A stretch of DNA of 64,000 bases from positions 64,001-128,000 of the forward strand of contig VMGC01000002.1 of NCBI GenBank assembly GCA_007376385.1, given 5' to 3'. Position 1 is the stretch's first letter, and every line of letters begins with the position of its first letter. Origin of the DNA: Parcubacteria group bacterium Gr01-1014_8. GTDB taxonomy: Bacteria > Patescibacteriota > Minisyncoccia > Phycocordibacterales > UBA2100. Positions 1,417 through 53,607 of the stretch are shown piece after piece. The position numbers and the translations under genes were made by a program. Below the pieces are notes generated by a model, which worked only from the letters and a program-made list of their open reading frames with translations, searched no databases and was not told where the DNA came from.

Positions 1417-1728
1417 AAAGTGACTTCAGGCGGGTACATCGCGCGCATTCTACTACTTAACAGTAATTGACACCAAGCGGGAGGGGTGTTGTATGTGGAA
1501 AACAATATATTTTTTCTCGCACGGATATTTTTTTGCTAAAAAAGTTCGCTCGGTATTCCTCTCGCTGAACCCGAGCGCATATTTCCGGCGATATGTGCCC
1601 TTATGCTTCAACGCGCAACTCCTCACTTCATTCGGAGACCCAGGCTTGCGCGTTTCCAGAGATTCAGCGAGAGGAATACCCGCTTGAATGAAAAATATTT
1701 ATTGGCGAGCGTTGCGAGTGACGCGAAA

Positions 1729-1775
1729 ATGTACTCATTTTCATGTCCGAGCCGGGGAGCCAAAACAGGGTCGAG
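1729..1775 (+). repeat. Conserved ~40-nt element, copy 1: hairpin gaaaatg-tact-cattttc followed by the box TCCGAGCCGGGGAGCCAAAA
   Basis: Same element at 13437-13478 and 50171-50210. Consensus: GTA(A)CTCAyTTyc..TTCCGAGCCGRGGAGYCAG.AAA. Confidence 0.6.
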
Positions 1776-3057: not shown

Positions 3058-3735
3058 TTAATCGGTATTAAGCTTGTATGCAAGCCACTCATTTATGTGC
3101 TTTTTGAATTCGGAAGGTGTTGAGAAATATTCCGGCATCGCTTTAGCGTCAATCAGCTTATTTTCAGGACGTTCCACTCCCGAAAAATCGAGATAGCTTG
3201 AATAAGGATACCTTTCTAGAGATTTTAAATTCGCGAGAGCAGACAAAGTCTCCTTTTCAAACGTCTTCGTAAGTGCGACTGGATTCAGATGCACGTACGC
3301 TATGAGGTATTTGAGATACCGATCATCTTTTGCATGAACGGCTTTGAATTTTCCTTGAAGGAGTGCTCCGTTGCGTTCATGTCGTTTGTTGAAATACATC
3401 GTATAGCCTGTTATGACTTTCTGCATGAATTTACTTATCCCGCCCACGCCAATTTCTCGGAGTATCAGGTGAAAATGATTTGGCATGAGGCAATACGCCG
3501 CGACGTCCACAAGTGGAGAGCCACGCGGCAGTTCCAAAGCTTCACGCAGTGAGTATCTACTTAGCCGTTCATCGAGCCGTTCTTCCTGGTTGCAGGAATA
3601 AAGGAGGGTTAGGAACCGCTCATAGTCACCGCGTGAGCTAAAAATCGAGCGCTTCTCGGTTCCCCGATTGTAGACATGATATATCTCATCGCTTGCGAAC
3701 TCTATTTGCCGTGTCACCCGGTGATTATAAAACAA
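3058..3735 (-). CDS. REP-associated tyrosine transposase (RAYT) / IS200-IS605 TnpA-like HUH Y1 transposase
   Basis: 'CLMPNHFHLIL' HuH motif and a C-terminal 'YLIAYVHLNP' tyrosine region. Flanked immediately on both sides by inverted REP hairpins. Confidence 0.8.
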   Translation of the reverse strand: MFYNHRVTRQIEFASDEIYHVYNRGTEKRSIFSSRGDYERFLTLLYSCNQEERLDERLSRYSLREALELPRGSPLVDVAAYCLMPNHFHLILREIGVGGISKFMQKVITGYTMYFNKRHERNGALLQGKFKAVHAKDDRYLKYLIAYVHLNPVALTKTFEKETLSALANLKSLERYPYSSYLDFSGVERPENKLIDAKAMPEYFSTPSEFKKHINEWLAYKLNTD

Positions 3736-9523: not shown

Positions 9524-10141
9524 ATGGATCTCTTGCTGCAGGGATTTGTTCTTGGGGCCGTAGGGGGCATTGTTCCTGGCGCCGTTCTGACTATCTTGCT
9601 GGTGAGCGCTTTGCAGGGCGGTTTGTACTTGGGGCTTCGAACCTTTTTCTGGGCAATGCTTTCAGAGATCGCGGTCGCTGGCGCGCTGCTTCTTCTCGCT
9701 ACTCAAATACCTCTCAATGAACGTCTGTTTATGGGCATGGGTCTCGTCGGGGGTTTTGTTCTCGTATATTTTGCCTTTAAGGTTTTCACATTGAAGTCGG
9801 TCGGTATACCCGAGCATGAACGAACAGTATTTACTCCCCTCAGAATTCTTATTTTATCTGCGACAAATGCTCCGCTCTACATCTTTTGGATATCAATATG
9901 TTTTCCGCTCATATGGCAGCTGGCTGCAAGCTGGGGTCTTTCTGCAGCAGCAGTGTCGTATTTTGTTGCATTTGAACTTGGGTGGGGAATCAGCACATTC
10001 ATGATGCTTATGCTCTTTATCTTTTCACGCTCCGTGCTGATGGATGAACGGATAATGCGCAAGGTATTTGTCGCACTCTCGATAATTCTTGCGGGGTTCG
10101 GTATCAAGATGTTCATAACGTCAGTTCAGTTATTTCAGTGA
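9524..10141 (+). CDS. LysE/RhtB-type translocator-like membrane protein
   Basis: Six predicted TM segments; N-terminal 'GFVLGAVGGIVPGAV' resembles the LysE motif. Confidence 0.45.
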   Translation: MDLLLQGFVLGAVGGIVPGAVLTILLVSALQGGLYLGLRTFFWAMLSEIAVAGALLLLATQIPLNERLFMGMGLVGGFVLVYFAFKVFTLKSVGIPEHERTVFTPLRILILSATNAPLYIFWISICFPLIWQLAASWGLSAAAVSYFVAFELGWGISTFMMLMLFIFSRSVLMDERIMRKVFVALSIILAGFGIKMFITSVQLFQ

Positions 10142-10156
10142 GGTATACTGATTGCA

Positions 10157-10729
10157 ATGGATCCTGTTGATGCAGGAGTTGCTTCGCATGAGAGTTTTGC
10201 GCATCCGCACCGCAACGTTGCGGTTCTTGGGGTGCAACCGGGCATGAAGGTTGCCGACTTTGGGGCCGGAAGCGGGGCATATGTACATGCAATAACGGAC
10301 GCGCTCTCTGGCACGGGTACCGTATATGCCATCGACGTTCAAAAGGACCTTCTGCGGCGGATCAAGAATGATGCAACAAAGCGCGGTTTTCATAACGTGG
10401 AAGTGGTGTGGGCCGACCTTGAAAAACTAGGCGCATCAAAGATAAAAGAACAGGTGCTCGATCTTGTTCTCATCTCTAATGTGCTGTTTCAATTGCATGA
10501 CAAACACGTCATATTTGAGGAGGCAAAGCGCATATTGAAAAAGGGAGGGCGGCTCGCTGTCATCGATTGGAGCGATTCGTACGGGGGCATTGGTCCTACC
10601 AAATCAGACGTAATGAAGAAGGAAGATGCCATCAAGCTTGCGAGGAGATCCGGATTCGAACTCCCGCGAGAATTTCAGGCGGGAGCGCACCACTACGGAT
10701 TAATTTTCAGAGTAAAGATGGGATCGTAG
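10157..10729 (+). CDS. Class I SAM-dependent methyltransferase
   Basis: Motif I 'VADFGAGSGAY'; acidic post-I residue; about 190 aa. Confidence 0.65.
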   Translation: MDPVDAGVASHESFAHPHRNVAVLGVQPGMKVADFGAGSGAYVHAITDALSGTGTVYAIDVQKDLLRRIKNDATKRGFHNVEVVWADLEKLGASKIKEQVLDLVLISNVLFQLHDKHVIFEEAKRILKKGGRLAVIDWSDSYGGIGPTKSDVMKKEDAIKLARRSGFELPREFQAGAHHYGLIFRVKMGS

Positions 10730-10743
10730 TATCATAAAAAATC

Positions 10744-12042
10744 ATGACCAAACTTTCATTTTTTCAGATAGTCGTACTCTCATCCTTCGGTGCTCTCGCG
10801 ATCGCGGGCGTAATGATATTTGCGTTCGTGGTCGGCGGCTCCGGAGGCGAGGGCATAGGAGAAGTGAAAATTTGGGGCACGCTGGACGCTGGCGCATTTG
10901 CAACGATACTCCGTCAGCTTGCGGAAGAGGACACTCGCATGAAAGCTGTAACGTATACCCAGAAAGATCAATCAACCTTCGATCGGGATGTGACCAATGC
11001 GCTCGCGTCCGGTGCGGGGCCTGACCTGTTCGTTCTCCGCAGTGATTTCGCAGAAAAGGAGGCAGCGAAGGTGTCGGCAATACCGTATGCGCTATTTTCG
11101 GAAGAACAATTTCAAAATACGTTCATCGAAGCGGCGAACGTATACATGGGTCCGGAAGGAGTGCGCGCCGTTCCGCTTGTTGTGGACCCGCTCGTACTCT
11201 ACTGGAATCGCGACATGCTGGCCTCATCGGGCTTTGCGAAACCGCCCGTGTTTTGGGACGAGTTGTTCGACATGGCGACAAAAATGACCAAAAAAGACGA
11301 TACGAATTCCATCATAAAGAGTACCATCGCGCTCGGTGAACATCAGAACGTGGATCATGCGAAAGAGATACTCTCGCTTCTCATCATGCAAGCTCAAGGC
11401 CGCATCACGCAAAGAGATGGTACGGGGAAATTGCAGACGGCGCTTGTGGCGCGCGCAGGAGATGTACAGCAGCCGACAGAATCGGCGCTCCGGTACTACA
11501 CTGAATTTGCGAACCCTATCAAAGCGCACTACACATGGAATCGCGCACTTCGAGAGAGCCGTTCAGCGTTCGCATCGGGAGATCTCGCACTTTATATAGG
11601 CCTCGCAAGCGAGGAGCCGTTGGTACGCCGCATCAATCCGAATTTGAACTTCGCTATTGCGCCAGTGCCGCAGATACGGGGCGGTGCTCGGAGCTTGAAT
11701 GTGGGACACGTATACGCATTTGCCGTACCAAAAGCGGCCAAGAATCTGCAAGGCGCTCTCACGGTTGCCTATACTCTTGCATCAATGGATACGTCAAAAC
11801 TATTCTCTAAGGCTCTTGGCATGCCTTCTGCAAGGAGAGATGTTCTTGCGGAGCCTGCGACGGGCAATGATGATCTTTTCAACAAGCAAGCCATCCTTGC
11901 GAGAGCGTGGGTAGACCCGGACCCGGAAAAAACTGATGTTATATTTAGAGACATGATACAGAGTGTCACCAGCGGCTCTGCGCGTCTCGGCGAAGCGATA
12001 CAGAGGGCGGATAAGACGATGAGCGACCTTCTCAGCATATGA
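10744..12042 (+). CDS. ABC transporter extracellular solute-binding protein (family 1)
   Basis: N-terminal TM/signal segment; SBP_bac_1-like body. No permease gene adjacent. Confidence 0.55.
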   Translation: MTKLSFFQIVVLSSFGALAIAGVMIFAFVVGGSGGEGIGEVKIWGTLDAGAFATILRQLAEEDTRMKAVTYTQKDQSTFDRDVTNALASGAGPDLFVLRSDFAEKEAAKVSAIPYALFSEEQFQNTFIEAANVYMGPEGVRAVPLVVDPLVLYWNRDMLASSGFAKPPVFWDELFDMATKMTKKDDTNSIIKSTIALGEHQNVDHAKEILSLLIMQAQGRITQRDGTGKLQTALVARAGDVQQPTESALRYYTEFANPIKAHYTWNRALRESRSAFASGDLALYIGLASEEPLVRRINPNLNFAIAPVPQIRGGARSLNVGHVYAFAVPKAAKNLQGALTVAYTLASMDTSKLFSKALGMPSARRDVLAEPATGNDDLFNKQAILARAWVDPDPEKTDVIFRDMIQSVTSGSARLGEAIQRADKTMSDLLSI

Positions 12043-12141
12043 CCCCATGAGAGAAATACTTTCGATATACCTATGAACATGATTGAACAGATCTACATGT
12101 GGGAGACAACAAAACATTCAAGCAGTCTCTCTCACGGGGTA
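12043..12141. repeat. Inverted-repeat pair unit U0, variant form: ACCCCATGAGAGA ... 71 bp ... TCTCTCACGGGGTA
   Basis: Right arm ends at the ATG of pilin gene 1 (12141). Confidence 0.55.
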
Positions 12142-12488
12142 TGACGAACATCAGACGAGTACTGAGGATCGCACACTGGACATTTTTCTTCGTGCTGCTG
12201 CCGTCCTTGGTTATGGCGCAAACGCTGCAAAATCCGACGCAGTTTCCGACCATTCAGCGTTTTATTGAAGGCGTACTGAAGGCGGTCGTATACATTGCGA
12301 TGCCTATCATTGCGCTTTTTATGGTGTATGCCGGGTTCCTTTTTGTTAAGGCGCGCGGAAATTCTGGAGAACTCGAGAATGCCAAGAAAAATTTTGTGTA
12401 CGTCATTATTGGCGCAATTCTCATCCTCGGCGCATGGGTATTTGCAACGCTTATCGGCGGAACCGTCAGTCAGCTCGTCGGCTCATAG
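12141..12488 (+). CDS. TrbC/VirB2-like pilin-type small membrane protein, paralog 1
   Basis: Signal peptide ..LLPSLVMA|QTL, two hydrophobic helices, conserved 'IIGAILILGAWVF..L' segment shared by all paralogs. Confidence 0.6.
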   Translation: MTNIRRVLRIAHWTFFFVLLPSLVMAQTLQNPTQFPTIQRFIEGVLKAVVYIAMPIIALFMVYAGFLFVKARGNSGELENAKKNFVYVIIGAILILGAWVFATLIGGTVSQLVGS

Positions 12489-12489
12489 C

Positions 12490-12795
12490 ATGACTACATT
12501 TAGACGCATTGGATATCTGATTCTCATCCTCGGCGCGCCGCTCGTCGTCGCGGCAGCGCCTCGCACCTATAGGGAACTTGTCGAATACCTCATTAAAATA
12601 ATGAATTACACGATAGGTACGTTGATAGTTCTTGGGCTGGTGACGTATTTTTACGGCGTTGCGCACAATATAATAAGATCTAAAGAAGGCGATTCAGGCC
12701 AGCAGAGGAGTTTTATTTTGATGGGTGTCGTCGTGATATTCGTCATGGTGTCGGTGTGGGGAATACTTCGTCTCCTTAGAACGACGTTCTTCTAG
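12490..12795 (+). CDS. TrbC/VirB2-like pilin-type small membrane protein, paralog 2
   Basis: Starts 2 nt after paralog 1. Contains 'ILMGVVVIFVMVSVWGILRLL'. Confidence 0.6.
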   Translation: MTTFRRIGYLILILGAPLVVAAAPRTYRELVEYLIKIMNYTIGTLIVLGLVTYFYGVAHNIIRSKEGDSGQQRSFILMGVVVIFVMVSVWGILRLLRTTFF

Positions 12796-12803
12796 TTTGA
12801 AAT

Positions 12804-13118
12804 ATGCGCGCGATCCGGGAACAGAGGAGACAATGCTTTGCCGGGGCTTCCGCCGTCATTTTCGGGATGGTCTCGCTTCCTTTTTTAGCGAACGCCCTCA
12901 CGCTCGCAGAAATGCGCGATGCGGCCGTACCCTTTCTGTATGGGATCATTGGTTTTTTCGGGGCGCTTGCATTCGGCATTTTTGGGGCAGGTCTTGTTGT
13001 TTATCTGGTTCGTATGAGTTTGGATAATCGTATGTATGGTATCGATATCATGATATGGGGGGTTACCATCCTTTTTGTCGTTGTCCTTCTCATCGGGCTT
13101 CTGGTGTGGATACAATAA
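12804..13118 (+). CDS. TrbC/VirB2-like pilin-type small membrane protein, paralog 3
   Basis: 'IMIWGVTILFVVVLLIGLLVW'. Confidence 0.55.
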   Translation: MRAIREQRRQCFAGASAVIFGMVSLPFLANALTLAEMRDAAVPFLYGIIGFFGALAFGIFGAGLVVYLVRMSLDNRMYGIDIMIWGVTILFVVVLLIGLLVWIQ

Positions 13119-13199
13119 GTGATTAGAAGGGGGGTTATTATGGCTGGAGGGCGAAATCGCGCGGGCCGCAGGCTTGCATGATCCACGAGCGAAGACGCA

Positions 13200-13420
13200 A
13201 AATCACGTATTCGTGCACGCCCATGAACCAATTTTGGTTTTTGACAACCAGATCTAGCGCGTAAGAAATGTAAAGGTGTATGCCATGTCAGCGAACCCGA
13301 GGCGTATTCGAAACGATCGGCCGAACCAAAATTTGGTGCTGGGTTATCCACACAGAACCGACCTTGGCGCCTTTTTGCGCTATCAGGGGGATACAATAAG
13401 ACTACTTACTGGCGACGTAA
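13200..13420 (+). pseudogene. Possible remnant of a deleted pilin paralog: a duplicate of the pilin-4 leader followed by a 12-nt match to the pilin-3 3' end (ggatacaataag), with no pilin body
   Basis: 13215-13350 aligns to 13530-13665 (gcccatgaaccaaYtttgg ... ggccRaaccaaaRtttggtgcKgggttatc). Confidence 0.35.
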
Positions 13421-13436
13421 GGCGAGAGAAACGACA

Positions 13437-13478
13437 GTGTAACTCACTTTCGTTTCCGAGCCGAGGAGCCAGCAAAAA
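13437..13478 (+). repeat. Conserved ~40-nt element, copy 2 (gtgtaactcactttcgtttCCGAGCCGAGGAGCCAGcaaaaa)
   Basis: See copies at 1729 and 50171. Confidence 0.6.
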
Positions 13479-13529
13479 TATTTTTTTACCAAGTCAACTT
13501 ATTGATATTTACTATGAGCGCACGACCTG

Positions 13530-13663
13530 CCCATGAACCAACTTTGGCCTCCAACAACGGTCATCGTGTAGGGAAAGAAAGTTTGAAATATGCCTTGTCA
13601 GCGTACGCTGGGGTGTCGCGAAATTTCTTGGCTAGGCCAAAGTTTGGTGCGGGGTTATCGACT
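13530..13663 (+). promoter_or_regulatory. Structured 5' leader of pilin gene 4: inverted repeats aaccaactttggcc / ggccaaagtttgg separated by ~76 nt
   Basis: Inverted repeat seen directly. The same architecture is present in the duplicate at 13215-13350. Confidence 0.4.
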
Positions 13664-14011
13664 ATGTGGGTGCTGATAGCGGGCACTTTTCTTTTGCCTG
13701 CACTCGTCTCTGCCCAGACTCTCCTGAACACGCTCGCGCTCGTCAATACGTTCCTCAACGCGCTCATCGGTCTTTTCATTACCCTTGCCATCGTCGCGTT
13801 CTTCTGGGGACTCATCAAGTACTTGGTCAATATGGGTTCCGAGAATGCGAAAGAAGGCATTCAGATAATGCTCTGGGGCATCATCGCAATTTTCGTCATG
13901 GTCTCCATTTGGGGAATCATCCGGTTGCTCCAAGCTACGTTCCGTGTCACATCAACTGACCCGGTCATTCCAAAAGGTATTCAGATCAACACTGGAGGGG
14001 GAAACTTTTAA
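13664..14011 (+). CDS. TrbC/VirB2-like pilin-type small membrane protein, paralog 4
   Basis: MWVLIAGTFLLPALVSA|QTL signal peptide; 'IMLWGIIAIFVMVSIWGIIRLL'. Confidence 0.6.
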   Translation: MWVLIAGTFLLPALVSAQTLLNTLALVNTFLNALIGLFITLAIVAFFWGLIKYLVNMGSENAKEGIQIMLWGIIAIFVMVSIWGIIRLLQATFRVTSTDPVIPKGIQINTGGGNF

Positions 14012-14074
14012 ACGTGGCCATTTTGATTCGAACCTGCGGGATTCTGGATTGGGGTTCCTAGGTCTGGGATAGCT

Positions 14075-14377
14075 ATGGAAGCTGGAATGATGGTGCTGCA
14101 GAGGTTCAAGGAATATATCCTTGACCCGACTATTTATCTTATCCTGACAGCAGGACTCCTTTTGTTTATTTACGGTCTTGTGCTCTTTATCTACAAGATG
14201 CGAGAGGGCAGCGACTATAAGGAGGGCCTGTCGCACATGCTCTGGGGCATAATCGGCATGTTTATTATGGTATCCGTGTACGGCATTATCGCGCTCATCA
14301 TAAACACGATCGGCGCTGACCCGACTCAACCTGATCTAAGCAGGATACCTGAAGCAAATCCCGGATTCTTTAAGTAA
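14075..14377 (+). CDS. TrbC/VirB2-like pilin-type small membrane protein, paralog 5
   Basis: 'HMLWGIIGMFIMVSVYGIIALI'. Confidence 0.55.
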   Translation: MEAGMMVLQRFKEYILDPTIYLILTAGLLLFIYGLVLFIYKMREGSDYKEGLSHMLWGIIGMFIMVSVYGIIALIINTIGADPTQPDLSRIPEANPGFFK

Positions 14378-14852
14378 TTGTCGAAATGACAGTCGGCCAT
14401 CGCCGCCTGTACTCCAGATAAACGAGTACTATTATCGCGCAGTCATATGCGGAAAGTGCGATAAGCCATAGTGAATGCGTCTGTGTGTACAGATACAGCT
14501 GAAATAGTGCAAAAAGAGCGAGGAGTACTGACGCGATGGGGAACATTATTTTTTTGTGCATTAAGAGCCCCGATGCGAGAATCAGATTTATCAGTGCACT
14601 AATGAATAAATACAGAGCGGCAAATTCTTTTCCCGCTTGCGTGACATGCGACACGTTTGAAAGCAGCACGTTGGCTAATACATCATTCGGGTCCTCTACT
14701 AACTCCTTTGAGACGACGCTTATTGCGAGGGCAGAAAGGGTTGCGCCGCTTGTGAAAAAGATGATTACCGCGCCGATCAATTCGGCAATTGCGTGAAGTC
14801 CTTTGAGGATGACAGCAACCTCGAAGAAGCGATGCAGAAATGACCGTTGCAT
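14370..14852 (-). CDS. DUF2127-like integral membrane protein (start taken at MQRSF, downstream of the tRNA)
   Basis: Four TM segments. The longer ORF extension overlaps tRNA-Leu, so it was trimmed. Confidence 0.45.
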   Translation of the reverse strand: MQRSFLHRFFEVAVILKGLHAIAELIGAVIIFFTSGATLSALAISVVSKELVEDPNDVLANVLLSNVSHVTQAGKEFAALYLFISALINLILASGLLMHKKIMFPIASVLLALFALFQLYLYTQTHSLWLIALSAYDCAIIVLVYLEYRRRWPTVISTIT

Positions 14853-14854
14853 AG

Positions 14855-14936
14855 TGGGCAGGGGGAGATTCGAACTCCCATGCCTTGCGGCGCCGCGTCC
14901 TAAGCGCGGTACGTCTACCAGTTTCGCCACCTGCCC
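14855..14936 (-). tRNA. tRNA-Leu (anticodon TAG), class II with long variable arm
   Basis: Hand-folded: acceptor GGGCAGG/CCTGCCC, anticodon loop cTTAGGa, T-loop GGTTCGAATCC. Confidence 0.8.
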
Positions 14937-15062
14937 GACAGGACGAATATACCATGACAAGGTACTATTTCGTGCTATATTTTTCGAACCGCCCACTCAC
15001 GAAATTCGTGTGGACGGGCAAACGGAGGCTAAGCAAATGAAAATGCCTTTCGCTCCGCATCA

Positions 15063-15135
15063 CCGCCCGTAGCTCAGTTGGTAGAGCAGCTCGCTCTTAA
15101 CGAGACGGTCGTAGGTTCGATTCCTACCGGGCGGA
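15063..15135 (+). tRNA. tRNA-Lys (anticodon CTT)
   Basis: Acceptor CCGCCCG/CGGGCGG, D-arm GCTCAGTTGGTAGAGC, anticodon loop cTCTTAa, T-arm GTAGGTTCGATTCCTAC. Confidence 0.8.
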
Positions 15136-15825
15136 CTGGATCGTGTCCTCTGCAACATCGTGTTTCTTTTTGCGCACAAGAATGAGTAGAACCCAAACGG
15201 CAATGAACGCCAGTACGAATTTCGGACCTATCGCCGCTATCGCTTTATCACCAAGAAAATATGCGAGCGTGGTCCACATCGTATTCCAAAGCAAGGTGGC
15301 AGCGATCGAATAGAGTGCGACCGTGCGAAATGGCATTGAAAGAATTCCTGCTGCGGTGGATGTGAGTGCGCCGAGGTTCGGGTGCCAATAGGTGAGGAAG
15401 ATGGCACGCGGACCGTATCGTATTAGTTGTGACTTTGCTTTTTCGAGGGCTTCTCGAAATCCCAGTGCAACAAGGAGCCGATACCAACCGTATTTGCCGA
15501 TGTAAAAATTAAACGTGTGAGCGACCAAAAAACCGAGAGATGTGATAAATAAGACCTCACCCAATTGTACGAGGTCGGAGCCCGCGAATATTGCACCGAG
15601 TACGATCACAAGACTGCCCGGATAATACCAGCCAACCATCAGCGCGGCTTCTAAAATTGCGCTCACAAATACCGTAAGCAGTCCGTAGTTGTCAAAATAC
15701 TCTCGTGCGAGCGAAATGATTTCCTCTTGCGGTGGCAGGTCGAGCAAAGTCCATACAAGATAGAACGAGACGAACGCCGCGAGCGAAAACAAAGGCAACC
15801 AAATGGCAGCTAAAATATCCTTCAT
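15124..15825 (-). CDS. DedA/VTT-domain family membrane protein
   Basis: Multi-TM protein with 'YYPGSLVIVLGAIFAG' and a 'FREALEKAKSQLIRYGPRAIFLTYWHP' segment typical of DedA proteins. The 3' end overlaps tRNA-Lys by ~12 nt. Confidence 0.55.
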   Translation of the reverse strand: MKDILAAIWLPLFSLAAFVSFYLVWTLLDLPPQEEIISLAREYFDNYGLLTVFVSAILEAALMVGWYYPGSLVIVLGAIFAGSDLVQLGEVLFITSLGFLVAHTFNFYIGKYGWYRLLVALGFREALEKAKSQLIRYGPRAIFLTYWHPNLGALTSTAAGILSMPFRTVALYSIAATLLWNTMWTTLAYFLGDKAIAAIGPKFVLAFIAVWVLLILVRKKKHDVAEDTIQSAR

Positions 15826-29258: not shown

Positions 29259-29269
29259 CAAACTATCTG

Positions 29270-29347
29270 TGCGCCGGACTGGATTCGAACCAGCGAAGAC
29301 CGAAGCCAACGCGTCTGTGCACAAGTCGCCTTGACCATAACCAGGCG
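29270..29347 (-). pseudogene. Degenerate tRNA-like remnant: intact T-arm GCTGGTTCGAATCCAGT, acceptor 3' strand CCGGCGCA and a tRNA-Tyr-like D-loop (TGGTCAAGGCGA), but no foldable acceptor or anticodon stem
   Basis: Shares its 3' acceptor with tRNA-Tyr at 29981. No valid cloverleaf after trying all registers. Inverted orientation relative to tRNA-Tyr. Confidence 0.45.
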
Positions 29348-29364
29348 TTATTTATTCTTTATGT

Positions 29365-30012
29365 ATGGTACGCATCCTAGCAATACCGAGAACGAAATGG
29401 AACGGAATAATAGGTCAGTACAAATCAGGGCTTTCGATGCAACAAGTTGCCGACAAGAATGGCGTATCGATTGATGTTATTACTTACATACTTCGTAAGT
29501 CTAAAGTGCCGCGGCGTTCATTTATTGACGCAAATAGAATTGCGTTTGAATCAAAGAAACCCTCTTTTGCGCTACGCAATCAGAACTCGGATTCATCAAA
29601 GGAGTTAGATTTGATTGGAGCGATGCTCTATTGGGCAGAGGGATATAAGAGAAATACGGCTAGCGGAATAGATTTTGCGAATAGCGATCCTGATATGGCC
29701 TTATTATTCTGGCGATTCCTGAAACATCGTTACAAACTCGACCTCAAGAGGCTCTATTTCTCTGTTTATCACTATGACGATCAACACTTATCCGCTCTTG
29801 TGAAGTTTTGGAAGCATAAGTTGGGTATCTCTGAGGAACTATTTCGACACTCATATATGAAGGGAAATTCGAATCCGAATGCGCGCAAGTTGCCATACGG
29901 TGTTTTACACATTCGCTATATGGATAAAAAGCTTTTGAGAGACGTGCTAACTTTGATAGAATCGTATAAACTACGGTTCTGCGTCGGTGGCGGAGTGGTC
30001 AATCGCAATTGA
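29365..30012 (+). CDS. HTH-domain protein, paralog A of a two-member family; possibly LAGLIDADG-like. The stop codon lies 30 nt inside tRNA-Tyr.
   Basis: N-terminal HTH 'LSMQQVADKNGVSIDVITYILRK'. The conserved block 'LYWAEGYKR...IDFANSDPDMALLFWRFL' matches paralog B 'IYWCEGAKR...FSFTNSDPELISTFLSLL'. Confidence 0.5.
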   Translation: MVRILAIPRTKWNGIIGQYKSGLSMQQVADKNGVSIDVITYILRKSKVPRRSFIDANRIAFESKKPSFALRNQNSDSSKELDLIGAMLYWAEGYKRNTASGIDFANSDPDMALLFWRFLKHRYKLDLKRLYFSVYHYDDQHLSALVKFWKHKLGISEELFRHSYMKGNSNPNARKLPYGVLHIRYMDKKLLRDVLTLIESYKLRFCVGGGVVNRN

Positions 30013-30115: not shown

Positions 30116-30499
30116 ATGAGAGCAGTGCGTTTTGCGCTCGCGTACCTAACTCCCGTTTCTTTAGCGCTTCTGCCGCTCGTTTCAAACGCTGCTTTGCCGG
30201 ATTCCATCGTTCCGTGTAAGGGGCTCGACTGCACAGTGTGCAGCTTGGCGACACTTGCTCAAAACTTGCTGAATGCGGGGATTTTCATGGCTATCTTCAT
30301 ATCCGCGCTTCTCTTTGCCTATGCAGGGTGGCTGTATCTCACCAACGAAGCTATCGGTCAGCAGCAGAAGGCAAAAGGCATGTTTCTGAATGTGGTAGTT
30401 GGACTCGTTCTCATTCTCGGCGCATGGCTCATCGTTGATACTTTGATGAAGGTTATGCTCGGAGGCAGCTACATGCCGTGGAATAGCGTTTGTTCATAG
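30116..30499 (+). CDS. TrbC/VirB2-like pilin-type small membrane protein, paralog 6
   Basis: Signal peptide MRAVRFALAYLTPVSLALLPLVSNA; 'VVGLVLILGAWLIVDTLMKVMLGG' matches paralog 1. Confidence 0.55.
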   Translation: MRAVRFALAYLTPVSLALLPLVSNAALPDSIVPCKGLDCTVCSLATLAQNLLNAGIFMAIFISALLFAYAGWLYLTNEAIGQQQKAKGMFLNVVVGLVLILGAWLIVDTLMKVMLGGSYMPWNSVCS

Positions 30500-31161: not shown

Positions 31162-31764
31162 ATGGTAGAGGAGCTCGGACGAGTGCGCTTGTCATACAAC
31201 AATGAGTTGGACAAGCTTCGTGCCGAACCGGAGAAATTGAGCGATTTACGCAAATTCATCGGCCTTGCCGCTCGCACTGCATATGGTGAATTATTGTTGA
31301 TTCAGGTCCGTGCGGGTATCCCAATCGTGAATGCCGCCCCGGGTCTGCTCAAACTGTTGGACCAGTCTGCGGACAAGGCCGAAGAGTATGAGAAATTAAT
31401 AAGCGGAATCGCATCGAAAGACGAACTCGAGGATAGGGAACGCGGTTTCTGCGTCCTCTTTGTGATACGACCGTTCTTAAATTACATAGCGGAGGTGCAT
31501 GCACACACGCCAGAGAACAACCATAATGCGCGGGCGGCACTCTTATCAATGATGAATGATTTTGTAGAGATAGCCGGACACATGGCCGGAAAAATCAAAG
31601 ATGAAACTGAACGGGATAGAGCCCAAAAAACGGTCGCTGAGTTGAAAGGCATGATAAAGAACAATGTGGTAGGGGAAGCACAATACATTGAGAGAGTAGA
31701 GATTTGTCGTGGCGCTGTTGGGCGTTTTTTCAACATCCTAGACGAGAGATGCATCGTTTGCTGA
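31162..31764 (+). CDS. Hypothetical protein
   Basis: 200-aa ORF; no motif. Confidence 0.35.
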   Translation: MVEELGRVRLSYNNELDKLRAEPEKLSDLRKFIGLAARTAYGELLLIQVRAGIPIVNAAPGLLKLLDQSADKAEEYEKLISGIASKDELEDRERGFCVLFVIRPFLNYIAEVHAHTPENNHNARAALLSMMNDFVEIAGHMAGKIKDETERDRAQKTVAELKGMIKNNVVGEAQYIERVEICRGAVGRFFNILDERCIVC

Positions 31765-31808
31765 TATTATATAACAGAAGTCTTACAACCATCAATTATA
31801 GTCTGATT

Positions 31809-32474
31809 ATGAAGTTAGTTGAGCATGAGCGCGCAATTTCGTTGCGCAAGCAAGGGCGTTCAATGAAGGAAATAGCAAACACTTTGTTTGTTGCAAAGAG
31901 TACAGTTTCGCTTTGGGTTCGAGATATTTCGTTGAGTAGACCTGCACGAAAACGCATACGTTTACTCTATACAAATGGACAGATCGCATCGCAAAAAGCC
32001 AATCGCGCAAAGACCGCACTTAAAGAGCGGCACGCACAAGAGGAAGCGAAACGCATCCTTTCAAAGATTCCGGATAATCGAGAGCTAAAGCAACTTTTAT
32101 GTTGTTTAATATATTGGTGTGAAGGTGCAAAGCGCTATGGGAACATGGGTAATTTTTCTTTCACAAATTCTGATCCCGAGTTAATCTCGACGTTTCTTTC
32201 ATTGCTGAGGGAATCGTTTGAATTGGATGAGGCAAAATTCAGGGTGTGTATGCATTTACACAGTTATCATGATGAGAAGAAGCAGTTGAAATTCTGGTCA
32301 AAAATGACTAGTATTCCAACTGAGCTGTTCATTCGTTCATATCGCAAGAGGGAGAGCGGTATAAGTATCCGAAGTGGGTATCAAGGTTGTATTTCCATCC
32401 GATATCACGATACTGCCTTTCTCCGTCAAATCTTGGCGATAGCGAGTGAATTTCTCAAGAAAAGGGGTCCATAG
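31809..32474 (+). CDS. HTH-domain protein, paralog B (start taken at MKLVEH; alternative starts at 31749 or 31704). Its TAG stop lies inside tRNA-Trp.
   Basis: HTH 'RSMKEIANTLFVAKSTVSLWVRD'. Shares the 'IYWCEG...FTNSDPEL' block with paralog A. Confidence 0.5.
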   Translation: MKLVEHERAISLRKQGRSMKEIANTLFVAKSTVSLWVRDISLSRPARKRIRLLYTNGQIASQKANRAKTALKERHAQEEAKRILSKIPDNRELKQLLCCLIYWCEGAKRYGNMGNFSFTNSDPELISTFLSLLRESFELDEAKFRVCMHLHSYHDEKKQLKFWSKMTSIPTELFIRSYRKRESGISIRSGYQGCISIRYHDTAFLRQILAIASEFLKKRGP

Positions 32475-49125: not shown

Positions 49126-50160
49126 TTGCTCGTCTCTCGTGTTATCGTGCGCAAAATGAAAAACTTCTGGGACACATTGCCGCGCCCTTTTTTCATACAG
49201 GCGCCGATGGAGGATGTGACGGACGCCGCTTTTCGGCGTCTCATCGCACGTTATGGCAAACCGGATGTGATGTTCACAGAGTTCACTTCAGCGGATGGTC
49301 TCGTTCTTGCACCACCTTCAGGACAGAAGATACTGCGGAAAAAGTTGGCGTTTGATGAGAGCGAGAGGCCTGTTGTTGCGCAATTATTTAGCGCGATGCC
49401 GGAGCGTATGGAAAAAGCTGCGGAATTGATAACCGAACTCGGATTCGACGGACTCGATATAAATATGGGTTGTCCAGTGGATGAGGTCGTGAAAAGCGGG
49501 GCAGGGGCCGCACTCATCAACGACCACGAGCTTGCGAGAGAGTTGGTTCGCGCGGCTGACCGAGGGCTCCGATCCGCCGGCCGGCGGATGCCTATCTCGA
49601 TAAAAACACGGATCGGGTATCGCGAAAATGAGCTTGCGTCGTGGCTGCCCGTTCTTTTAGAAGTGGAACCGGCGATGGTGGCAATTCATGCTCGAACTCG
49701 AAACGAAATGTCTGCAGTGCCTGCCAGATGGGACACGGTGAAGGAGGCAGTTCATATTCGAGACCGGCTCGGCTCGAAGACTTTTATTGTCGGCAACGGT
49801 GACGTACGGGATATTTCTCACGCGCGGGAACGCATAAAAGAAAGCGGCGCCGATGGTGTGATGCTCGGGCGAGCTATTTACGGAAATCCTTGGTTGTATT
49901 CAGGCCGGACGGATGCACCGTCCCCGAAAGAGCGCATCAACGCGCTCCTTGAACACCTCTCACTATTCGAAGAATTGATGCAGGGGACAACGAACTATGC
50001 GACCATGAAAAAGCATTTCAAGGCGTACATTTCTGGCTGGCCTGCCTGCCGCGACGAGCACGGCGCAGGCAGGGACGGCGCGAAAGATCTGCGGGTGAGG
50101 CTTATGGAGACGGAAGCGATATCGCAAGCAAGAGAAATTCTTACTGGCGACGTAGAGTGA
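49126..50160 (+). CDS. tRNA-dihydrouridine synthase (Dus family)
   Basis: 'PFFIQAPMEDVTDAAFRRL', 'DINMGCPVDEVVKSGAGAAL'. Confidence 0.8.
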   Translation: MLVSRVIVRKMKNFWDTLPRPFFIQAPMEDVTDAAFRRLIARYGKPDVMFTEFTSADGLVLAPPSGQKILRKKLAFDESERPVVAQLFSAMPERMEKAAELITELGFDGLDINMGCPVDEVVKSGAGAALINDHELARELVRAADRGLRSAGRRMPISIKTRIGYRENELASWLPVLLEVEPAMVAIHARTRNEMSAVPARWDTVKEAVHIRDRLGSKTFIVGNGDVRDISHARERIKESGADGVMLGRAIYGNPWLYSGRTDAPSPKERINALLEHLSLFEELMQGTTNYATMKKHFKAYISGWPACRDEHGAGRDGAKDLRVRLMETEAISQAREILTGDVE

Positions 50161-50164
50161 GAGC

Positions 50165-50188
50165 AGAGAACATGTACTCATGTTCTCT
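50165..50188 (+). terminator. Perfect 10-bp-stem hairpin agagaacatg-tact-catgttctct, 5 nt after the dus stop; forms the 5' part of conserved-element copy 3
   Basis: Seen directly. Followed by a pyrimidine-rich tract. Confidence 0.5.
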
Positions 50189-50210
50189 TCCGAGCCGAGG
50201 AGTCAGAAAC
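50171..50210 (+). repeat. Conserved ~40-nt element, copy 3 (catgtactcatgttctcTTCCGAGCCGAGGAGTCAGaaac)
   Basis: See 1729 and 13437. Confidence 0.6.
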
Positions 50211-50232
50211 TAGAGCCAGTTTACCAGTGATA

Positions 50233-53358: not shown

Positions 53359-53607
53359 ATGTTGCCTATTTTGGTTCCTCGGCTCGGAATTGAAAATGAA
53401 TACACTTTCACTTCACTCGCAACGCTCGCCAATAAATATATGGAAAAGATAAAAATTGAACATCACACACTATCAGGAGGTCTCTGGATAGGGGCGTGGC
53501 TGTTCACGATCGGTTTTTTGCACCTAACATTTTGGAAAGGTGTTCTCGCCGTCGTGATATGGCCGTACTACCTCGGTGTTGCATTCGGCGGCTGGGTCCA
53601 CATATGA
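53359..53607 (+). CDS. Small hypothetical membrane protein
   Basis: Two TM segments; immediately upstream of nirK. Confidence 0.3.
   Translation: MLPILVPRLGIENEYTFTSLATLANKYMEKIKIEHHTLSGGLWIGAWLFTIGFLHLTFWKGVLAVVIWPYYLGVAFGGWVHI

Follow-up and report, generated by a model that had tools for sequence, protein, structure and literature searches.

The window analysed here, a 64,000-nt stretch of contig VMGC01000002.1 (positions 64,001 to 128,000), is a core chromosomal, housekeeping stretch of Candidatus Kaiserbacteria (Patescibacteria). It carries a tandem array of five small genes, P1 to P5, whose predicted products resemble the VirB2/TrbC pilins of type IV secretion systems (T4SSs), and a sixth related gene, P6, located directly downstream of a tRNA-Tyr gene and unlinked to the array. 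The six open reading frames (ORFs) are listed below in window positions; a slash within a leader marks the predicted cleavage position, and A and B are the two subfamilies separated by profile-profile comparison.

12141-12488, + strand: P1, 115 amino acids (aa), subfamily A; leader VMA/QTL, two transmembrane helices
12490-12795, + strand: P2, 101 aa, subfamily B; leader and two transmembrane helices
12804-13118, + strand: P3, 104 aa, the most divergent of subfamily B; leader ANA/LTL, two transmembrane helices
13664-14011, + strand: P4, 115 aa, the most conserved of subfamily B; leader VSA/QTL, two transmembrane helices, conserved C-terminal tail VTSTDPVIPKGIQINT
14075-14377, + strand: P5, 100 aa, subfamily B; no signal peptide, two transmembrane helices, C-terminal tail
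30116-30499, + strand: P6, subfamily A (P1-like); signal peptide, Cys-rich segment, two transmembrane helices

The intergenic gaps are 1 nt between P1 and P2, 8 nt between P2 and P3, 545 nt between P3 and P4, and 63 nt between P4 and P5. P1 has an alternative GTG start at 12099, and the base composition of the array region is that of the rest of the window.

Hydropathy analysis placed two hydrophobic helices around a short charged loop in each of P1 to P5 and, together with the plus-strand ORFs and the profile matches described below, confirmed the five consecutive paralogous two-helix genes of 100-115 aa recorded in the initial annotation. A Sec-type leader was recognised on P1 to P4 and on P6 from hydropathy and the -3/-1 rule. 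The cleavable signal peptide first thought to be common to the array is therefore predicted for P1 to P4, whereas P5 is leaderless by hydropathy and begins directly with a short amphipathic N-tail followed by the first transmembrane helix, as do its orthologues. Similarly, the second-helix motif (I/H)MLWGII..F.MVS.WGII, proposed at first for the whole family, holds for P2 to P5 but not for P1 and P6, which form the separate subfamily A. The loop between the helices is positively charged, consistent with a protein whose two termini lie outside the membrane. For P4, AlphaFold2 gave a two-helix hairpin (helices 2-55 and 62-95) with a predicted local distance difference test score (pLDDT) of 72.8. 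The P4 tail beyond the second helix (13940-14008, VTSTDPVIPKGIQINT) hardly varies among ~40 species; so little variation is unusual in a segment predicted to be extracellular and suggests a conserved interaction or processing site.

The proteins were compared with Pfam profiles both individually and through their orthologue sets. P1 passed PF18895 (T4SS_pilin) with 46.8 bits against a gathering cut-off of 26.6, and its match to PF04956 (TrbC/VirB2), the search proposed with the initial annotation, was a marginal pass (29.0 bits, cut-off 27.9, profile positions 7-97 of 98). P2 to P5 did not match PF04956, and P2 and P3 themselves had no Pfam match. P4 scored 25.5 bits against PF18895, slightly below the cut-off of 26.6, but all 40 P4 orthologues scanned matched this family at E ≤ 0.01 (best 7.9e-10). 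P5 itself scored 18.4 bits, and 34 of 38 P5 orthologues matched, as did 8 of 39 P2 orthologues. In this member-by-member scan, no family other than PF18895 recurred among the matches of the P4, P5 and P2 orthologues, and P3 is connected to PF18895 through P4 (hhalign E 8.6e-30).

Profile-profile comparison with hhalign separated the six proteins into two subfamilies, {P1, P6} and {P2-P5}. Members of the latter were mutually linked at E 1e-10 to 1e-30 (to P4, E 1.1e-24 for P2 and 2.1e-18 for P5), despite pairwise identities of 21-41% within the array. P1 and P6 were linked with 97.7% probability (E 2.5e-12), so that the sixth paralogue noticed at 30116-30499 is real and P1-like. Links between the subfamilies were weak (E 5e-4 to 3e-2), except that between P2 and P6 (E 1.4e-5). 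Profiles built from the orthologues matched exactly six ORFs, P1 to P5 and P6, among all window ORFs of at least 45 aa, the P4 profile matching P3 at E 1e-22 and the P1 profile matching P6 at E 4.6e-11; this specificity indicates similarity beyond mere hydrophobic composition. Databases contained 946 homologues of P4 (the best 70-97% identical), and those with a named source were all called Candidatus Kaiserbacteria, Parcubacteria or Patescibacteria. Judged by these homologies, P1 to P6 are shown to be VirB2/TrbC-like proteins of the T4SS_pilin (PF18895) family, outright for P1 and at family level, through orthologues or hhalign, for the others, as the initial annotation had proposed. With five adjacent family members and homologues named Kaiserbacteria or Patescibacteria, the locus fits the definition of a patescibacterial VirB2 array, namely at least two VirB2-like genes in a Patescibacteria genome, in tandem or with one non-pilin gene between them (PMC12102498).

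For related loci, one genome per species was scanned, giving 349 relatives, and the best 80 loci (labelled L001 and so on) were compared. The order gyrA, methyltransferase, solute-binding protein (SBP), P1, P2, (P3), P4, P5 was the same in essentially all of these ~80 loci, and each array position had its own orthologue in ~80 species. In the complete Kaiserbacteria genome CP066682.1, of 859 kb, the array is found at about 662 kb. Median identities to the window protein were 82% for GyrA, 60% for the methyltransferase and 54% for SBP, and, within the array, 71% for P4 (81 loci), 59% for P1 (78 loci), 47% for P5 and 42% for P2 (79 loci). The median for P3 was 38%, with only 20 loci classed by BLAST and the remainder being P4-like third genes. 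In relatives, the gene at the P3 position has a short form of ~73-104 aa (for example L040 1732-1956 and L049 9665-9886), which is also that of the window, and a long form of ~108-146 aa with a third hydrophobic helix and a Lys/Glu-rich C-terminal tail (L002 9380-9820, L009 9339-9758). Apart from these two forms, the array showed no sign of recent duplication, gene conversion or change in copy number. Ten related loci carry a P6 orthologue, ~7-10 kb downstream of the array. Synonymous sites were saturated in most comparisons; in three P1/P4 comparisons with unsaturated synonymous divergence (dS), the ratio of nonsynonymous to synonymous divergence (dN/dS) was 0.03-0.10 (0.03-0.09 for P4 alone). 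At the level of sequence, these comparisons show the array to be an ancient, fixed set of one-to-one orthologues under purifying selection.

Our preferred explanation, to which we assign a probability of roughly 60%, is that P1 to P5 and P6 are VirB2/TrbC-like subunits that would serve a VirB4-driven T4SS encoded elsewhere in the genome, as a pilus or conduit for host contact. The precursors would enter the membrane via Sec/YidC, and signal peptidase I (a gene for which lies at 760-1416, - strand) would cleave after VMA, VSA or ANA to yield mature hairpins about 75-100 aa long. These would have their two termini outside and a short basic loop in the cytoplasm, and would form a membrane pool on which a T4SS of the patescibacterial, monoderm-conjugation-like type would draw, assembling them into a short pilus or conduit for host-cell contact. 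P4 would be the core or major subunit and the others minor, leaderless P5 possibly being a base or platform subunit. Because each is conserved individually, the five subunits are most likely not interchangeable variants but structural components with distinct, non-redundant roles. A survey that covered 3,035 Patescibacteria genomes records VirB4 for five of seven array-bearing Kaiserbacteria assemblies (L009, L012, L023, L034 and L081); it also reports that virB4 of Paceibacteria is usually near dnaA/dnaN and that a pilin gene is near virB4 in just 1135 of 1948 assemblies (PMC12102498).

Several results weigh against this explanation. The same survey lists VirB4 as absent from the other two array-bearing assemblies, L011 and L042, both of which are drafts (PMC12102498). 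As the initial annotation had stated for VirB4, VirB6 and VirD4, T4SS genes were not detected in the window: no VirB4, VirD4, VirB6, VirB3 or other T4SS family was found among 41 window ORFs scanned with Pfam (40 of at least 200 aa and a 205-aa ORF at 9524-10141; seven, six of the former and that at 9524-10141, had no Pfam match). No VirB4-sized candidate was found within 10 kb of the array in the ~80 related species either. In this check, all ORFs of at least 450 aa within that distance were homologues of window housekeeping genes except ten, of which eight were scanned with Pfam (four unrelated, namely a helicase, an ABC exporter, an FGAR amidotransferase and a PP2C protein, and four without a match) and two start like serine recombinases, as judged by eye rather than by Pfam scan. 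Since T4SS genes were not detected nearby, the T4SS link rests on family membership and on other lineages. P1 exceeds the PF04956 cut-off by only 1 bit; profile searches of the PDB with the P1 and P4 orthologue alignments returned no solved VirB2, TraA or TrbC; and two fold searches, a structural check proposed along with the annotation, returned generic helical hairpins only and no solved pilin. Finally, P4 is unusually conserved for a surface-exposed pilin.

Three other accounts of the array were considered. P1 to P5 might be non-genes or unrelated, chance hydrophobic ORFs, given that the proteins are small and hydrophobic and that P2 and P3 lack Pfam matches of their own, but the 946 P4 homologues, the conserved order of five orthologues, the specificity of the profiles for six ORFs and the purifying selection refute this, and its probability is negligible. 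The initial annotation had offered the array as a candidate for antigenic diversification. In the corresponding account, the array would be an antigenic or host-range variation cassette of interchangeable, rapidly diversifying major pilins, as proposed for the Bartonella/Anaplasma VirB2 arrays and suggested for Patescibacteria; the tandem, divergent copies (21-41% identical) are what such a cassette would contain, and the idea has been offered in the literature (PMC12102498). One-to-one orthology at every position in ~80 species (P4 median 71%, gyrA 82%) and purifying selection (dN/dS 0.03-0.10 where measurable) argue against antigenic variation, as do the lack of recent duplicates, gene-conversion tracts or copy-number changes save the P3 forms and the consistent absence of the leader from P5, and we consider this account very improbable.

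The remaining account concerns the neighbour of the array:

10744-12042, + strand: SBP gene, encoding a membrane-anchored sugar-type (MalE/CUT1-like) solute-binding protein, next upstream of P1

SBP matched Pfam SBP_bac_8 and SBP_bac_1 (E about 1e-15), has an N-terminal membrane anchor, and has maltose/trehalose-binding proteins as its nearest solved relatives. In 55 of 78 related loci, the SBP stop codon and the P1 start share 4 nt, an arrangement from which translational coupling is predicted in most relatives; in the window itself, the 4-nt overlap has been lost and the gap is 56-98 nt. We infer a functional link between SBP and the array. The hairpins might thus constitute a T4SS-independent membrane module, co-opted as small membrane partners of a co-translated sugar-type SBP in a receptor, adhesin or uptake complex, without a T4SS pilus. 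The overlap in 55 of 78 loci and the invariant gene order favour such a module, as do the distance of any VirB4-like gene from the array (never within 10 kb), a P4 conserved like a housekeeping protein and the two of seven array-bearing draft genomes in which VirB4 is unreported. Nevertheless, no ABC permease or ATPase was found beside SBP in the Pfam scan of window ORFs, the 4-nt coupling is absent from the window, the family-level matches are only to pilin families of T4SSs and of integrative and conjugative elements (ICEs), and the equivalent array in the sole genetically tested patescibacterium is essential and located inside a T4SS cluster (PMC10633639); we regard the module as unlikely. 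We also consider doubtful a composite proposal in which SBP and the five pilin-like genes would be a separate, Kaiserbacteria-wide module, its five non-redundant hairpins forming with the sugar-binding protein a host-glycan-sensing adhesion or uptake filament independent of, or loosely tied to, the dnaA-proximal T4SS cluster, and in which, separately, the repeat R1 of the P3-P4 spacer (see below) would be an undescribed structured RNA or a REP-like (repetitive extragenic palindromic) mobile element.

Earlier papers have described tandem VirB2-like arrays in Patescibacteria (Wang 2023; Quinonero-Coronel 2025), and the Kaiserbacteria array is an ordinary, well-conserved one. A survey of the phylum counted 441 VirB2-like arrays in 383 assemblies, with 2-11 genes per array and 25% identity on average (Quinonero-Coronel et al. 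2025, PMC12102498), the array of Southlakia epibionticum is essential and lies within a T4SS cluster (PMC10633639; PMC12857230), and a 2025 review of T4SSs highlights the same patescibacterial pilin arrays (PMC12857230). Compared with the T4SS cluster SEML1_0006-0019 of S. epibionticum ML1, the 'Sec-secreted array' of Nanosynbacter lyticus TM7x and the 441 surveyed arrays, the window array likewise consists of tandem, divergent PF18895/PF04956 genes encoding products of ~100-130 aa with Sec leaders and two helices, is chromosomal in a monoderm ultrasmall host, and has a within-array identity of about 25-40%. Unlike the surveyed arrays, which were reported to be most abundant in Microgenomatia and Saccharimonadia (PMC12102498), it belongs to Paceibacteria (Kaiserbacteria), and it differs from the known patescibacterial arrays in lying at least 10 kb from VirB4-like genes, in a fixed gyrA-methyltransferase-SBP context and coupled to SBP in most relatives. 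It differs from them also in that P2 and P3 fall below the survey thresholds for hidden Markov models (HMMs) and that each member is a conserved orthologue. What goes beyond the published arrays is therefore the fixed set of one-to-one orthologues under purifying selection, the invariant post-gyrA context with SBP-P1 coupling in most relatives, the position of P2 and P3 under the survey HMM thresholds, and the consistently leaderless P5. Because P2 and P3 are below these thresholds, HMM-based surveys would undercount such array members.

As in Agrobacterium VirB2, RP4 TrbC and F TraA, the products are small Sec-leader precursors with two hydrophobic helices and a short basic loop, both ends are predicted to be outside, and P1 passes the PF04956 cut-off. 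Unlike these proteins of diderms, they show no detectable sequence match to solved pilins and a non-specific fold match, and their host is monoderm; moreover, genes for VirB3/VirB4, a TraF-type cyclase and TraQ/TraX maturation are not adjacent to the array. P1 aligned over nearly the whole 80-position model of NF045849 (Mbov_0395 family pilin-like conjugal transfer protein of mycoplasma ICEs, including Mbov_0395 and MMCAP2_0565) at E 4e-9, and P5 weakly (E 1e-3), although both scores, 36 bits for P1 and 18.8 bits for P5, are below the curated cut-off of 40. Mbov_0395-type proteins belong to monoderm systems of the mating-pair-formation class MPF-FATA, to which patescibacterial VirB4 is related. 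Unlike the mycoplasma ICE pilins, the window genes lie outside any ICE, with no relaxase or other ICE context. Tandem pilin-gene amplification is shared with the Bartonella/Anaplasma VirB2 paralogue arrays, but these are thought to serve antigenic variation, whereas the window copies are ancient, individually conserved and under purifying selection.

The 545-nt gap between P3 and P4 contains two kinds of repeat:

13219-13351, + strand: repeat copy A, ~135 nt, with a long closing stem
13529-13662, + strand: repeat copy B, ~135 nt, abutting the P4 start codon; fold z-score -2.0
13401-13478 (+), 1694-1768 (+), 50136-50213 (+) and 53366-53440 (-): R1, a structured repeat of ~75 nt; covariance-model scores 87-92 bits

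The ~135-nt copies are 310 nt apart, and their closing stems differ by compensatory changes (AATTTTGG/CCAAAATT vs AACTTTGG/CCAAAGTT). R1 comprises a 5-bp outer stem, a conserved CGAG/CGAG tandem-GA internal loop and a variable 12-13-bp hairpin; compensatory changes were found in 15 of 20 pairs, and 92.5% of cells were paired, against at most 49% in slid controls. Further copies occur in related loci (L009 9774-9852; L083 1684-1758, - strand; L046 1877-1941 and 11333-11421, both - strand; L019 11312-11388, - strand; and also L057, L077, L079 and L061). R1 stands upstream of varied genes, including P4 (in the window, and the P4 orthologue in L009), pth, dnaX and the S1 gene, and in related loci it stands beside apparent tRNA-Leu sequences inferred from ORF translations. 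Searches of Rfam with the whole window at the gathering threshold and with 12000-14500 at E ≤ 5 returned tRNAs only, leaving R1 unmatched, and R1 may represent an RNA motif not described before, or else a REP-like element.

The closest relative, L084 (P4 97% identical), has none of the spacer elements, and L085 (93% identical) has one 135-nt element and the 75-nt motif, copy B being absent; the spacer elements are thus recent insertions and not part of the pilin system. A lost paralogue hidden in the P3-P4 gap was considered and rejected, because the gap is made up of repeats that the closest relative lacks. An exact 12-nt direct repeat, GGATACAATAAG, occurs at 13108-13119, where it includes the end of P3, and at 13389-13400; it brackets a 269-nt segment with copy A, and looks like a target-site duplication around an insertion. 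A perfect DnaA-box-like 9-mer, TTATCCACA, is present at 13344-13352, at the 3′ end of copy A, but a replication origin there was rejected, as the cumulative GC skew climbs steadily across the window. In L001, a TTATCCACACAG string was observed upstream of the P4 orthologue (9851-10000). Between pth and the S1 gene, the ORF at 3058-3735 (- strand) showed a weak match to the IS200/Y1 transposases (PF01797, 24.1 bits vs cut-off 23), and no such gene is present in the syntenic L001 and L002; it is a possible RAYT-like (REP-associated tyrosine transposase) partner of the dispersed 75-nt repeats.

A link of the pilin family to tRNA-derived sequence had also been proposed in the initial annotation, from a T-arm fragment between P4 and P5 placed at 14030-14046. 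The exact 14-mer exists, but its position is as follows:

14025-14038, - strand: tRNA-Tyr T-arm 14-mer CGCAGGTTCGAATC, an exact match to the 5′ half of the T-arm

The match cannot be extended by a single base, the 3′ half of the T stem is missing, and a search of 128 kb with ~600 tRNA 14-mers would give ~0.3 recurrences by chance. The 14-mer was therefore rejected as a tRNA remnant or attachment site, and the proposed link, resting on this chance-level 14-mer, is not upheld. Elsewhere in the window, an inverted partial copy of the tRNA-Tyr 3′ end (T-arm and acceptor strand) lies at about 29269-29308 (- strand), just upstream of a LAGLIDADG-like ORF (29365-30012, + strand, motif MLYWAEGYKR) that extends into the tRNA-Tyr gene. 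Another ORF, paralogous to it (31704-32474, + strand, motif LIYWCEGAKR), abuts tRNA-Trp. Neither ORF had a Pfam match at E ≤ 1e-4, and both may be homing-endonuclease-type insertions beside tRNA genes. The other genes identified in the window encode signal peptidase I, Pth, S1, GyrA, alanine racemase, IF-2, ClpB, fumarase, enolase, iPGM, MiaA, ParB, RelA/SpoT, TopA, DprA, SerS, Dus and DnaX, among others. A scan of 10000-15200 for promoters and terminators gave counts not above those of shuffled sequence.

A large part of the uncultured diversity of bacteria belongs to Patescibacteria, which are apparently host-attached; their T4SS and pilin arrays are essential in the sole species tested genetically. 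In Kaiserbacteria, the array is a stable set of distinct subunits of ancient origin, whose genes lie away from those of the secretion ATPase and are coupled to the gene of a sugar-binding protein. An array that is fixed, distant from the ATPase genes and coupled to SBP restricts the plausible hypotheses, favouring a heteromeric structure that may have a receptor partner.

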